From Escherichia coli (GTDB taxonomy: Bacteria > Pseudomonadota > Gammaproteobacteria > Enterobacterales > Enterobacteriaceae), in the NCBI RefSeq assembly GCF_003334785.1, contig NZ_QOWV01000002.1: a DNA stretch of 64,000 nucleotides, one strand, 5' to 3'. Both the position numbers and the translations under genes were made by a program. Positions 2,327-37,109 of the stretch are shown piece after piece; within the stretch, counting starts at the first letter, position 1; each line of letters begins with the position of its first letter. Under the pieces are notes generated by a model. It was not told the DNA's origin. It worked only from the letters and a program-made list of their open reading frames with translations, and searched no databases.

Positions 2327-3784
2327 ATGACAATAACTCCACAAAACCTGATCGCACTGCTACCGTTGCTGATCGTCGGCTTGACGGTGGTGGTTGTGAT
2401 GCTCTCCATTGCGTGGCGACGCAATCATTTCCTCAACGCTACGCTCTCGGTTATTGGGCTTAACGCGGCGCTGGTTTCGCTCTGGTTTGTTGGCCAGGCG
2501 GGCGCTATGGACGTTACGCCGCTGATGCGCGTTGATGGTTTCGCCATGCTTTACACCGGGCTGGTATTGTTGGCGAGCCTCGCCACCTGTACTTTCGCCT
2601 ACCCGTGGCTTGAAGGCTATAACGACAACAAGGATGAGTTCTACCTGTTGGTGTTAATTGCCGCGCTGGGCGGGATCCTGCTGGCGAATGCCAACCATCT
2701 GGCGTCTCTGTTCCTCGGTATCGAACTGATCTCTTTGCCGCTGTTTGGCCTGGTCGGTTACGCTTTCCGCCAGAAACGTTCACTGGAAGCCAGTATCAAA
2801 TACACCATCCTTTCTGCCGCAGCGTCTTCTTTCCTGCTGTTTGGTATGGCGCTGGTGTATGCGCAGTCTGGCGACCTGTCGTTTGTCGCGTTGGGTAAAA
2901 ACCTTGGCGACGGTATGCTCAACGAGCCGCTGTTGCTGGCAGGTTTCGGCCTGATGATTGTTGGCCTCGGCTTCAAACTCTCTCTGGTGCCGTTCCACCT
3001 GTGGACGCCAGACGTATACCAGGGCGCGCCTGCGCCGGTTTCCACTTTCCTGGCGACGGCGAGCAAAATCGCTATCTTCGGTGTGGTGATGCGTCTGTTC
3101 CTCTACGCACCGGTGGGTGACAGCGAAGCGATTCGCGTGGTGCTGGCGATTATCGCCTTTGCCTCCATCATCTTCGGTAACCTGATGGCGCTGAGCCAGA
3201 CCAATATCAAACGTCTGCTCGGTTACTCATCTATCTCTCACCTCGGCTATCTGCTGGTAGCGCTGATTGCGCTGCAAACCGGCGAGATGTCGATGGAAGC
3301 GGTAGGGGTTTACCTGGCCGGTTATCTGTTCAGCAGCCTCGGCGCGTTCGGCGTGGTCAGCCTGATGTCCAGCCCGTATCGTGGCCCGGATGCTGATTCC
3401 CTGTTCTCTTACCGCGGTCTGTTCTGGCATCGTCCGATCCTCGCGGCAGTGATGACGGTGATGATGCTGTCTCTGGCCGGTATCCCGATGACGCTGGGCT
3501 TTATCGGTAAGTTCTACGTGCTGGCGGTCGGTGTCCAGGCACACTTGTGGTGGCTGGTGGGTGCCGTGGTTGTCGGTTCGGCAATCGGCCTCTACTACTA
3601 CCTGCGCGTGGCGGTGAGCCTGTATCTTCACGCCCCGGAACAACCGGGTCGCGATGCACCATCAAACTGGCAGTACAGCGCGGGCGGTATCGTTGTGCTG
3701 ATCTCTGCACTGTTGGTACTGGTGCTGGGTGTATGGCCACAACCGCTGATTAGCATTGTGCGTTTGGCAATGCCGCTGATGTAA
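2327..3784 (+). CDS. nuoN: NADH-quinone oxidoreductase subunit N
   Basis: 485-aa membrane ORF starting 7 nt after nuoM stop; last gene of nuo operon. Confidence 0.95.
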
Positions 3785-3807
3785 TCTGTTACTTTGTAAG
3801 TCAGAAA

Positions 3808-3832
3808 GCCGCCGACATGCTCGGCGGTTTTT
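3808..3832. terminator. Rho-independent terminator, likely bidirectional (nuo operon / yfbP)
   Basis: GC stem gccgccga...tcggcgg followed by TTTTT on plus strand and flanked by A/T on the other side; lies between convergent nuoN and yfbP. Confidence 0.6.
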
Positions 3833-3867
3833 CTGAAAAAGAAGGGATAGTAGATAGACGCAGAGCG

Positions 3868-4719
3868 TTAAGTGAACTGTGTACGACTATCGCCAAAATA
3901 CTCTAAACATAACTGCCTGAATTTTGCCCGCCATTCATCGATATTAAAATCATAGCGTTCCTGAAATGCAGTCGTTTCACTGGACATTATCCAGGCATAA
4001 TTATGTAACAGGGTTAATGCCTGAAGCGGTTTTCTCTGCGCAAAATAAGTATCAACACACATCTGCATCAAGGGGTAATTATTATTTTCCTTTGTTCCTC
4101 CAAAGCTAAGATCTAATCCTTGTTCTTTAATGCACTGAATCACAGGATCATCCTGGAAATTCGGGACATCTGCGGCCTGTGACAGCAAATGAATGACTTT
4201 ATTGTCAGGAACACCAAATGCCCAATTGCCAAGATAAGCATTAAGCGCAGCCTGTGCTGCAGCTTCTGTTTTTTTACATCGGCGATACTGGATTGCCAGT
4301 GCTAACCAATATTCGCTGACTTCAGGCAATTGTTCTGTTGCTCGCTGTAACAGTGGCAGTGCGTCATCAAGCCTTCCCGTTGAAAGACATTTCCGAGCAA
4401 CACGGAAGAGATTTGCTGCAAAGTCTTGATCTTCGATGCTGATGCCATTTTCATGGGGATCATCATCATTCACTTCCAGCCATTCTTCGAACTTCTTAAT
4501 GCTGGAAAAGGCAGGTACGATTCGCCATTCGTCATGGTACGTTTCGCACACTATAGGTAGTTTATGCTCCTGACCAATAGGCCAGTACAAACCGAAACAG
4601 TCTCCGTTACCATATGCTGCATCTGTAAGTACGGTAAATCCGTTCGGAGGAAAAGGCCCCGGGCAAATTCCATCAATGCCAGGTGAAATATCACTACTGC
4701 GAGGAATAAGTTTCATCAT
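3868..4719 (-). CDS. yfbP: Uncharacterized protein YfbP
   Basis: 283-aa ORF (MMKLIPRSSDISPG...); recalled as yfbP; no recognised catalytic motif. Confidence 0.75.
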   Translation of the reverse strand: MMKLIPRSSDISPGIDGICPGPFPPNGFTVLTDAAYGNGDCFGLYWPIGQEHKLPIVCETYHDEWRIVPAFSSIKKFEEWLEVNDDDPHENGISIEDQDFAANLFRVARKCLSTGRLDDALPLLQRATEQLPEVSEYWLALAIQYRRCKKTEAAAQAALNAYLGNWAFGVPDNKVIHLLSQAADVPNFQDDPVIQCIKEQGLDLSFGGTKENNNYPLMQMCVDTYFAQRKPLQALTLLHNYAWIMSSETTAFQERYDFNIDEWRAKFRQLCLEYFGDSRTQFT

Positions 4720-34975: not shown

Positions 34976-35779
34976 ATGAACGCATTATTAAGCAATCCCT
35001 TTAAAGAACGTTTACGCAAGGGCGAAGTGCAAATTGGTCTGTGGTTAAGCTCAACGACTGCCTATATGGCAGAAATTGCCGCCACTTCTGGTTATGACTG
35101 GTTGCTGATTGACGGGGAGCACGCGCCAAACACCATTCAGGATCTTTATCATCAGCTACAGGCGGTAGCGCCCTATGCCAGCCAACCCGTGATCCGTCCG
35201 GTGGAAGGCAGTAAACCGCTGATTAAACAAGTCCTGGATATTGGCGCGCAAACTCTACTGATCCCGATGGTCGATACTGCCGAACAGGCACGTCAGGTGG
35301 TGTCTGCCACGCGCTATCCTCCCTACGGTGAGCGTGGTGTCGGGGCCAGTGTGGCACGGGCTGCGCGCTGGGGACGCATTGAGAATTACATGGCGCAAGT
35401 TAACGATTCGCTTTGTCTGTTGGTGCAGGTGGAAAGTAAAACGGCACTGGATAACCTGGACGAAATCCTCGACGTCGAAGGGATTGATGGCGTGTTTATT
35501 GGACCTGCGGATCTTTCTGCGTCGTTGGGCTACCCGGATAACGCCGGGCACCCGGAAGTGCAGCGAATTATTGAAACCAGTATTCGGCGGATCCGTGCTG
35601 CGGGTAAAGCGGCTGGTTTTCTGGCTGTGGCTCCTGATATGGCGCAGCAATGCCTGGCGTGGGGAGCGAACTTTGTCGCTGTTGGCGTTGACACGATGCT
35701 CTACAGCGATGCCCTGGATCAACGACTGGCGATGTTTAAATCAGGCAAAAATGGGCCACGCATAAAAGGTAGTTATTGA
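34976..35779 (+). CDS. rhmA: 2-keto-3-deoxy-L-rhamnonate aldolase RhmA (HpcH/HpaI family)
   Basis: Track ORF 34673..35779 overlaps rhmT; start [21 protein letters not shown] at 34976 gives 267 aa. Confidence 0.9.
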
Positions 35780-35786
35780 TATCAAA

Positions 35787-35811
35787 GGCCCATGGGGATC
35801 GGCTGTGGGCC
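35787..35811. terminator. Hairpin between convergent rhmA and ypaA (terminator candidate)
   Basis: ggccca-tggggatcggctg-tgggcc with T-rich flank (tgtgtt). Confidence 0.4.
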
Positions 35812-35819
35812 TGTGTTAA

Positions 35820-36005
35820 TTAGTGGTTATTCGCTGCCAGATCGGCTTCGCTTAGCTGGGTGGCCGCGAGCACCTGGTCACGATCAAAGCCCTGTTCCAG
35901 CATGCGCAAAGCAATTTTAATGGCTTGTTCATGCAAACCTTCTAATTTACCTTCCTGCCAGCCAATTTGATGTCCTTCCTGCCGCAGCCGTTCAGCAATA
36001 GTCAT
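35820..36005 (-). CDS. ypaA: YpaA, small protein duplicating the C-terminal tail of YfaD/RpnE
   Basis: 61-aa [43 protein letters not shown]... near-identical to the last about 57 aa of the adjacent yfaD product, apart from a 4-aa insertion and a divergent C-terminus. Confidence 0.7.
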   Translation of the reverse strand: MTIAERLRQEGHQIGWQEGKLEGLHEQAIKIALRMLEQGFDRDQVLAATQLSEADLAANNH

Positions 36006-36201
36006 TAATCTCTCCTTTTAATGACAGTTCGGAATATCAGCATCAGTGAGTTGGGTTGTCGCCAGCACAATCTCACGTTCAAAGCCCTGCTCCAGCATGC
36101 GCAAAGCAATTTTAATGGCTTGTTCATGCATACCTTCCTGCCAGCCAATTTGATGCCCTTCCTGCCGTAGCCGTTCAGCAATAGTCATTAATCTCTCCTT
36201 T
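35820..36201. repeat. Tandem direct duplication of the yfaD 3' end (about 180 bp, including SD-ATG)
   Basis: Block caaaaggagagattaATGact... through ...gcgcatgctggagcagggctttga occurs twice (36018..36201 and 35820..36017 on minus strand) with a 12-bp indel and a few substitutions. Confidence 0.75.
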
Positions 36202-36917
36202 TGTAGTGGTGAACGTTCGGCAATCTCCTCAATAAAACGGGTGAAACGGGAGGTATCGCCGCATTGCAGCAGATAATTAAACAGTGTTTGTAGCTGGCTG
36301 TCATTAGTGAAGCCTCTAACCAAAAGCGTGGTGATCCTGTCGACCATGCCGATTAAATCGCGGTCGCGAATATGCTTTTGAATCAGTTCCAGCAGAGCTA
36401 TACGCCGATGTTGCATGATCTCATCGTCAGGTACGATGGTGATATCCACCAACGGAAAAGCTTCGGTGTACAACTGCCGGGCAAGTTGCGGATCGTCAAA
36501 CTCATCCAGCCAGTTGAGTGAGTACGGGTAAGGCGAGGTTTCGCCATGATAAAACAGCAACGGCACCACCAGCGGGACTCTGTCATAGCCTTTGTCCAGG
36601 TGACGCTGCATGGCGGCAGTGGCATAGCGCATTAGCCGAAAAGCCATATTCTTTTCTGCAGAGCTTTGATGTTCAATCACGCAGTAGATATAGCCGTCAC
36701 CGTCGCTGGTTTCCACGGACCACAAAACATCCGAGTAGTAAGCGCGTAAACTTTTTTCAATAAAACTAGTGGGTTCCAGGCGTAAGGTTTGCAGGTTGCA
36801 AAGCTTGCGCAGTGGTTCTGGTAAATGTATTTCGAGAAAATCCCGTGCGGTTTCGGGTGTGAACATAAAGGTTTTAAATACCGCATCATGCGGGGAGGAG
36901 GTTGTTGATTCGGTCAT
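36018..36917 (-). CDS. yfaD: Rpn-family (YhgA-like, transposase_31/PD-(D/E)xK) recombination-promoting nuclease YfaD/RpnE
   Basis: 299-aa ORF ([28 protein letters not shown]...); no flanking inverted repeats, so not an IS element. Confidence 0.85.
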
Positions 36918-37109
36918 GGTTGTCCGTCACCTGATATTTATGATGACGCGACATTACGGTTATCCCAGGCCTTTGACATCTGCCAGTTTCAGCCTTTGCG
37001 AGACGTTTTCAGAGGAATTTTCACTGCGTTGCAACGCATACATTGGGCACGGAATCGTGTACGCAAAAATGCCCGGTAACCACATGCTTACCGGGCATCA
37101 GAAAGGAGT

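Follow-up and report, generated by a model that had tools for sequence, protein, structure and literature searches.

We analyzed ypaA and its neighbor rpnE (yfaD) in a 64-kb stretch of the Escherichia coli chromosome (64,000 nucleotides of contig NZ_QOWV01000002.1, below called the window). The small protein YpaA is very probably RpnE_Ss, a stand-alone paralogue of RpnE_S, the antitoxin whose translation begins at an internal start codon of rpnE, the gene of the toxic nuclease. We propose that a tandem duplication of roughly 195 bp in the E. coli lineage copied the internal Shine-Dalgarno (SD) sequence, the ATG and the tail-coding segment. The result would be a nuclease domain followed by a first tail copy with a new, junction-derived PNCH* end, then an SD-ATG and a second tail copy that carries the ancestral C-terminus.

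The duplication and the internal start had been noticed in a first-pass annotation of the window made from the DNA alone. This was a correct rediscovery, since these facts were published in 2019 and 2023, and with the central facts all in the literature it has confirmatory value only. To these facts we add how often the second copy occurs among 5426 complete E. coli genomes, in which direction the duplication went, that the copies have diverged in a mosaic pattern and are under purifying selection, and that their repeat numbers are unequal within haplotypes. The Rpn system is the founding case of an antitoxin that lies within the gene of its own toxin; it has also been linked to anti-phage defense. 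In ypaA, a gene within a gene has escaped to become free-standing, which bears on how the specificity between nuclease and antitoxin evolves.

A tandem copy of the rpnE tail

The full-length gene rpnE occupies positions 36018..36917 on the minus strand and encodes RpnE_L, a Rpn/YhgA-like PD-(D/E)XK nuclease of 299 aa, as assigned from the open reading frame (ORF) list, the family models PF04754 and NF007418 and the RefSeq gene name rpnE. On the same strand, ypaA follows at 35820..36005 and encodes 61 aa; its assignment as rpnE_Ss draws on the ORF list, BLASTP, the structure 7TH0, the family PF27070 and a published SPA tag. When the region was compared with itself in a repeat search, we found two collinear direct-repeat blocks on the minus strand, far beyond chance, which confirm that ypaA is a tandem duplicate of the last 180 bp or so of rpnE, a homology that is also published. 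The 5′ block pairs 36131..36202 in rpnE with 35948-36019 on the ypaA side (72 nt, 97% identity, spacing 183 nt), the 3′ block 36036..36137 with 35841-35942 (102 nt, 84% identity, spacing 195 nt). The spacings differ by 12 nt because of a 12-bp indel, which had been listed already from the sequence. According to the alignments, the extra nucleotides lie at 35937..35948 (minus strand) and form ypaA codons 20-23, KLEG, i.e., one four-residue unit more than in the rpnE tail. At the protein level, BLASTP aligned YpaA 1-61 with RpnE 244-299 at 46/61 identical positions with one four-residue gap (E=1e-28). The last residues differ as the first-pass annotation had stated, with ..DADIPNCH* in RpnE and ..EADLAANNH* in YpaA. 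The 2019 preprint gives 98% identity between the rpnE internal product and YpaA; in the window and in K-12 the identity is 46/61 or 75% for the proteins and reaches 97% in the 5′ 72 nt only.

The block common to ypaA and the rpnE tail opens at AAAAGGAGAGATTAATG, and the repeated tail of about 180 bp includes the ribosome-binding site and start AAGGAGAGATTAATG. The motif AAGGAGAG-ATTA-ATG is present twice, within rpnE and directly 3′ of the rpnE stop codon. In rpnE, the SD sequence AAGGAGAG at 36193..36200 (minus strand) lies 4 nt upstream of the internal ATG (36188..36186); it is conserved among homologues, and published Ribo-RET/Onc112 and immunoblot data show that the internal start is used. 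The duplicated AAGGAGAG at 36010..36017 (minus strand), recognized from sequence and alignment, comes right after the rpnE stop and precedes the ypaA ATG (36005..36003), so that the intergenic gap from the rpnE stop to the ypaA start measures 12 nt. The internal SD and in-frame ATG described in the first-pass annotation hold, whereas its 57-aa product starting at 36191 has to be shortened: that position includes the Leu243 codon, and the frame was thus given one codon too long. With the ATG at 36188, the internal ORF rpnE_S spans 36018..36188 (minus strand) and encodes the 56 residues M244-H299 of RpnE, the intragenic antitoxin that was detected with an SPA tag in published work (PMC10400941).

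Mismatches between the two copies are distributed in a mosaic manner, with 2/72 in the 5′ block versus 16/102 in the 3′ block (Fisher p=0.005). At synonymous sites, the divergence (pS) is likewise lower in codons 1-33 (0.14) than in codons 34-52 (0.48). The 5′ part of the copies was either homogenized by gene conversion or is younger. Tandem Repeats Finder reported nothing between 35700 and 37000, because just about two diverged copies stay under its score, and a tblastn search of the window found no other Rpn or tail copy.

Family assignment and predicted fold

Judged by its sequence, RpnE is a bona fide Rpn/YhgA-like nuclease. Residues 8-209 match the Pfam family Transposase_31 (PF04754, model positions 1-202 of 203, E=7e-88), the N-terminal PD-(D/E)XK-type YhgA-like domain. 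Against the NCBIfam equivalog NF007418, RpnE reaches 699.5 bits at a cut-off of 583, and against the RpnA model 422, under 583. From the RpnA-model score below cut-off it follows that the protein is RpnE and not RpnA. In the RpnE, RpnA and TIGR01784 models, YpaA and the 56-aa internal ORF each align with the last 60-65 positions, and YpaA is placed at positions 244-308 of NF007418. In precomputed Pfam records, PF27070 (HTH_Rpn_C) is listed for the RpnE C-terminus and for the exact YpaA protein. Our own Pfam-A scan of YpaA gave no family at E<=0.001 and no match at all to DUF4351 (PF14261), under which stand-alone RpnS genes of some species are annotated (PMC10400941). YpaA should therefore not be filed as DUF4351; the family that applies is PF27070.

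The internal SD-ATG is a feature of the Rpn family: 70 of the 75 Rpn homologues that retain the conserved internal Met have a purine-rich, SD-like motif 5′ of it. By sequence, the top structure match of YpaA is 7TH0, 'Recombination-promoting nuclease RpnA' (RpnA_S), with E=3e-4; it is the sole meaningfully named one, and relative to it YpaA has 12 extra residues in its first helix. The AlphaFold model of YpaA, built on an alignment of 36 Rpn tails, has a mean predicted local distance difference test score (pLDDT) of 75.6 and contains a long helix 3-37 and two shorter ones, 42-49 and 53-57. Its best match in the PDB is again 7TH0 (probability 1.00, E=0.015, template-modeling score 0.73 normalized by target). 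With moderate confidence, the model thus suggests that YpaA, like RpnA_S, folds into three helices of which the first is long. The long first helix with its variable four-residue repeats might provide the interface for dimerization and specificity. We assume that YpaA could dimerize via this helix and bind RpnE_L or RpnE_S, thereby modulating the nuclease. Among the models of PADLOC-DB v2.0.0, none matched RpnE or YpaA, which does not argue against a role in defense because this 2023 database has no Rpn model.

Expression of RpnE_S and YpaA

Translation of both small proteins is established in the literature. In all five E. coli rpn genes (rpnA-E), Meydan et al. (2019) saw ribosomes arrested by retapamulin (Ribo-RET) at internal starts that are in frame, and they stated that the internal product of rpnE, RpnE-C, resembles the protein encoded by the independent gene ypaA (bioRxiv 10.1101/520783). 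Zhong et al. (2023, PNAS 120:e2307382120) showed that all five RpnS proteins are made, and by differential RNA sequencing (dRNA-seq) they detected an internal transcription start site (TSS) in all rpn genes and an abundant short transcript (PMC10400941). They renamed ypaA to rpnE_Ss, saw SPA-tagged RpnE_S and YpaA by immunoblot and found in their phylogeny that RpnE_Ss groups with RpnE_S (PMC10400941). The small tail protein that the first-pass annotation expected from the internal start is hence expressed, and the internal TSS and ribosome footprints that it named as a check are on record for the rpn genes (PMC10400941; bioRxiv 10.1101/520783).

Its statement that small C-terminal Rpn proteins modulate the toxic nuclease is likewise matched by published work: RpnS binds RpnL and blocks RpnL toxicity, SOS induction and DNA cleavage (PMC10400941), which establishes an antitoxin activity for RpnS proteins in general. 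Overexpressed Rpn proteins lower viability and induce the SOS response; cleavage was shown with purified RpnA_L, and RpnE_L was detected only. Apart from a commentary, we found no literature on YpaA or RpnE later than the papers of 2019 and 2023.

Our strict promoter scan gave no sigma-70 site. In a relaxed scan, the only 10/12 promoter match on the rpnE coding strand was ATGACA-N17-TTTAAT at 36276..36304 (minus strand), about 88 nt 5′ of the internal ATG, a candidate internal promoter by consensus match only. Neither a TSS in the 12-nt gap nor a terminator between rpnE and ypaA was visible in the sequence. As the gap comprises merely 12 nt and the promoter scans gave no site there, ypaA appears to lack a promoter of its own and would therefore be translated from the rpnE and rpnE_S transcripts. 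These might include the abundant short transcript from the internal promoter, with ribosomes recruited by the SD copy of ypaA. A GC-rich hairpin at 35786..35812, between the convergent genes yfaU and ypaA and called on the plus strand without assignment to either strand, is kept at the orthologous loci of other Escherichia. It is likely a shared terminator, at which the rpnE-ypaA transcripts would end.

Distribution, polarity and selection

The locus itself is nearly always present, as an 1181-nt query (35780-36960) matched in 5421/5426 complete E. coli genomes, with 100% identity in several strains and 99.8% in K-12. For the second copy, we used a 90-nt query across the rpnE stop and ypaA start at a coverage of at least 80%. 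This junction was present in 3132 of the 5426 genomes (58%); the others matched only the internal-start half of the query and thus have a single copy. A metagenome scan for the junction sequence yielded 3 loci only, and little was gained. Each of the about 65 two-copy loci that we parsed had an intact ypaA together with its SD and ATG.

A single tail is present at this locus in two Escherichia clade genomes as well as in E. albertii and E. whittamii, and it ends with ..IDRDLVLA(A/T)TQLSEADLAA..H, i.e., it is of the ypaA type. From this it follows that ypaA keeps the ancestral end and that the in-gene rpnE tail of two-copy strains is derived. The last codons of this two-copy in-gene tail (CCGAACTGTCATTAA) resemble a shortened copy of the segment 5′ of the internal SD (CCGAACGTTCACCACTACAA). 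Such likeness would fit a tandem duplication of a unit reaching from the CCGAACGTTCACCACTACAA segment to near the tail end; owing to later small deletions, the exact breakpoint allowed no unambiguous reconstruction from the two sequences.

Between the rpnE tail and ypaA, pN/pS is 0.31 overall, and among alleles it is about 0.2 for each copy type. Values of about 0.2-0.3 indicate purifying selection on both copies outside the repeats. We also considered diversifying selection between the copies; with an overall pN/pS of 0.31 and a value of 0.45 where the 3′ part diverges, there is no support for it.

According to Zhong et al., RpnE_Ss may disappear from a genome either through deletion or because it becomes fused to the N-terminal part of rpnE (PMC10400941). 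We found single-copy rpnE tails that are identical to YpaA alleles of two-copy strains (L005 to YpaA of L004, L007 to YpaA of L006/L009, and L008 to YpaA of L101), and by their sequences these tails would be consistent with such fusion or deletion events.

A divergent Escherichia labeled E. coli SCPM-O-B-8794 (L018, 3180-3440) has a single-copy rpnE with a mosaic tail of 8 repeat units, rpnE-type in the middle and ypaA-type at the end (EADLAANNH). This tail represents either an old second allele class or a recombination product of the two copies. In three further loci, L016 (2468-3440, Escherichia whittamii) as well as L111 and L112 (E. coli), the rpnE nuclease domain contains an in-frame stop or frameshift, and SD, ATG and tail ORF are intact. 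Here, the antitoxin-type ORF seems to outlive the toxin.

Downstream extra tails are rare and were seen in only 2 of 80 other Rpn loci. In the rpnC-like locus L076, the tail duplicate (3528-3698) has 88% identity to the tail of its own gene and corresponds to the published rpnC_Ss. In Rahnella bruchi (L057), a more diverged duplicate (3679-3891) lies about 240 nt downstream and is 58% identical to its own gene's tail.

Repeat numbers and the specificity of YpaA

RpnS sequences differ by four-residue repeats in the first helix of their three-helix bundle, and the repeat number sets the specificity between RpnS and RpnL (PMC10400941). One repeat added to RpnC_S or RpnC_LS abolishes neutralization unless both partners have it (PMC10400941), and a commentary on the 2023 paper states that repeat mismatch prevents inhibition in trans. 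In our data set, YpaA alleles have 3, 4, 5, 7 or 9 four-residue units and RpnE tails 3, 4, 6, 8 or 11. The about 65 two-copy loci fall into nine haplotypes with the (RpnE tail, YpaA) counts (3,4), (8,3), (8,4), (6,4), (8,5), (4,7), (11,7), (11,9) and (11,5). The numbers are hence unequal in 9/9 haplotypes, although this is not significant, as random pairing would give no equal pair among nine haplotypes with a probability of about 0.6.

Several points weigh against the main reading, in which YpaA is a stand-alone RpnE_S paralogue that may modulate the nuclease. In K-12 and in the window, YpaA has 4 units and RpnE 3; because a one-repeat mismatch abolished RpnC neutralization, YpaA may not inhibit the adjacent RpnE. 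Moreover, 10 substitutions separate YpaA from the RpnE tail among about 25 residues in helices 2-3. The published evidence on YpaA concerns expression only. Of the complete E. coli genomes, 42% lack the second copy, the neighbors of the locus are metabolic genes (yfaU and glpC) rather than a defense island, and RefSeq/PGAP mostly labels ypaA a partial pseudogene. Given the unequal repeat numbers and the RpnC result, neutralization of the adjacent RpnE_L by YpaA is uncertain.

YpaA might instead be a non-cognate RpnS of ancestral type that stands beside an RpnE(L+S) pair drifted in repeat number and in helices 2-3, a tentative reading that we regard as possible but on balance not probable. Such a YpaA would not raise the dose of cognate antitoxin but would either neutralize other RpnE alleles that enter the genome through recombination or transfer, or be a silent donor cassette. 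In the cassette case, the in-gene tail would recombine with ypaA, and a single event would swap or reset both the tail of the nuclease and its matching antitoxin. The never-equal unit counts within the nine haplotypes favor this reading, with the caveat that their lack of equality is what chance would often produce. The loss of RpnC_S/RpnC_L neutralization upon a one-repeat mismatch (PMC10400941) also agrees with it, though this rule was shown for RpnC with one additional repeat only. YpaA unit counts do match RpnE tails of other strains, e.g., the 4 units of K-12 YpaA equal those of the L006 RpnE tail. Single-copy tails identical to YpaA alleles point to exchange or fusion between the two positions; yet these alleles could be ancestral and not deletion products, as the outgroups are single-copy. 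The mosaic tail of L018 and the mosaic divergence of 2/72 versus 16/102 mismatches (p=0.005) fit as well, the latter being expected if the 5′ part undergoes gene conversion.

We consider it rather doubtful that YpaA is such a specificity-mismatched, ancestral-type RpnS and not an extra cognate antitoxin, and that it may give cross-immunity or serve as donor cassette. If true, the cassette version would let an intragenic toxin-antitoxin module vary in a shufflon-like manner, with tail and antitoxin re-tuned together.

That ypaA is a functionless remnant or partial pseudogene, a neutral duplication translated only since SD and ATG were copied along, is very improbable: the PGAP note 'incomplete; partial in the middle of a contig; missing N-terminus', the lack of the second copy in about 42% of complete E. 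coli genomes and in all other Escherichia species sampled and the absence of a reported phenotype would agree with it, but ORF, SD and ATG are intact in all of the about 65 two-copy loci and nine haplotypes, pN/pS is about 0.2-0.3 and not about 1, the repeat region changes in whole 12-nt units with the frame kept, the protein accumulates to a detectable level (PMC10400941), and rpnC-like and Rahnella rpn genes have independent downstream RpnS duplicates.

Relation to known systems

YpaA, as a paralogue of RpnE_S, does not differ in kind from RpnE_Ss of Zhong et al. (2023); both gene and locus are the same, namely the second RpnE_S copy downstream of rpnE (PMC10400941). With the RpnA_S/RpnA_L pair (7TH0) it shares the N-terminus, the three helices of which the first is long, and an SD inside a PF04754 nuclease gene. 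RpnA_S, in contrast, is without the inserted four-residue units, of which YpaA has three more, and RpnA, unlike rpnE, has no downstream stand-alone copy. Published antitoxin activity concerns RpnA_S, RpnB_S and RpnP2_S; RpnE_S and YpaA are not among them. The layout, in which a small ORF downstream of an rpn gene repeats the tail of that gene, recurs in rpnC_Ss (L076); this case differs in being an independent event in another paralogue, located about 100 nt downstream versus 12 nt for ypaA. In a wider sense, the Rpn proteins resemble other in-frame internal-start proteins, e.g., ArcB-C and Cas11d from cas10d, in which a C-terminal fragment from an internal SD-ATG acts on or with the full-length protein. 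These differ from RpnE_S in that the small product is not also a separate duplicated gene.

Genomic setting and annotation

The gene order in the window is yfaU (rhmA), ypaA, rpnE (yfaD), glpC, and the RefSeq annotation of an identical locus has the same order. The yfaU side is polymorphic (relative to window positions 36018-36917; loci L005, L138 and L140): some genomes have a truncated yfaU or none, and in these rpnE adjoins yfaY. A 13-nt inverted repeat, GATATCAAAGGCC / GGCCTTTGACATC, with 92% complementarity at 35778-35790 and 36968-36980, exactly brackets the rpnE-ypaA unit. We rejected it as the mark of a mobile unit, since other Escherichia lack it at their orthologous loci and a stretch of 1.3 kb would by chance contain about 0.5 such pairs; it is probably a coincidence.

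The identity of ypaA also matters for annotation, as RefSeq still treats ypaA as a partial pseudogene although its small protein has been detected. For ypaA (35820-36005; loci L001-L013 and L095-L102), the wording of PGAP is 'hypothetical protein; incomplete; partial in the middle of a contig; missing N-terminus'. For rpnE, its name is 'ISNCY family transposase'; the 2023 paper makes a case against Rpn proteins being transposases (PMC10400941). A few newer records have the label 'Rpn/YhgA-type helix-turn-helix domain-containing protein'.

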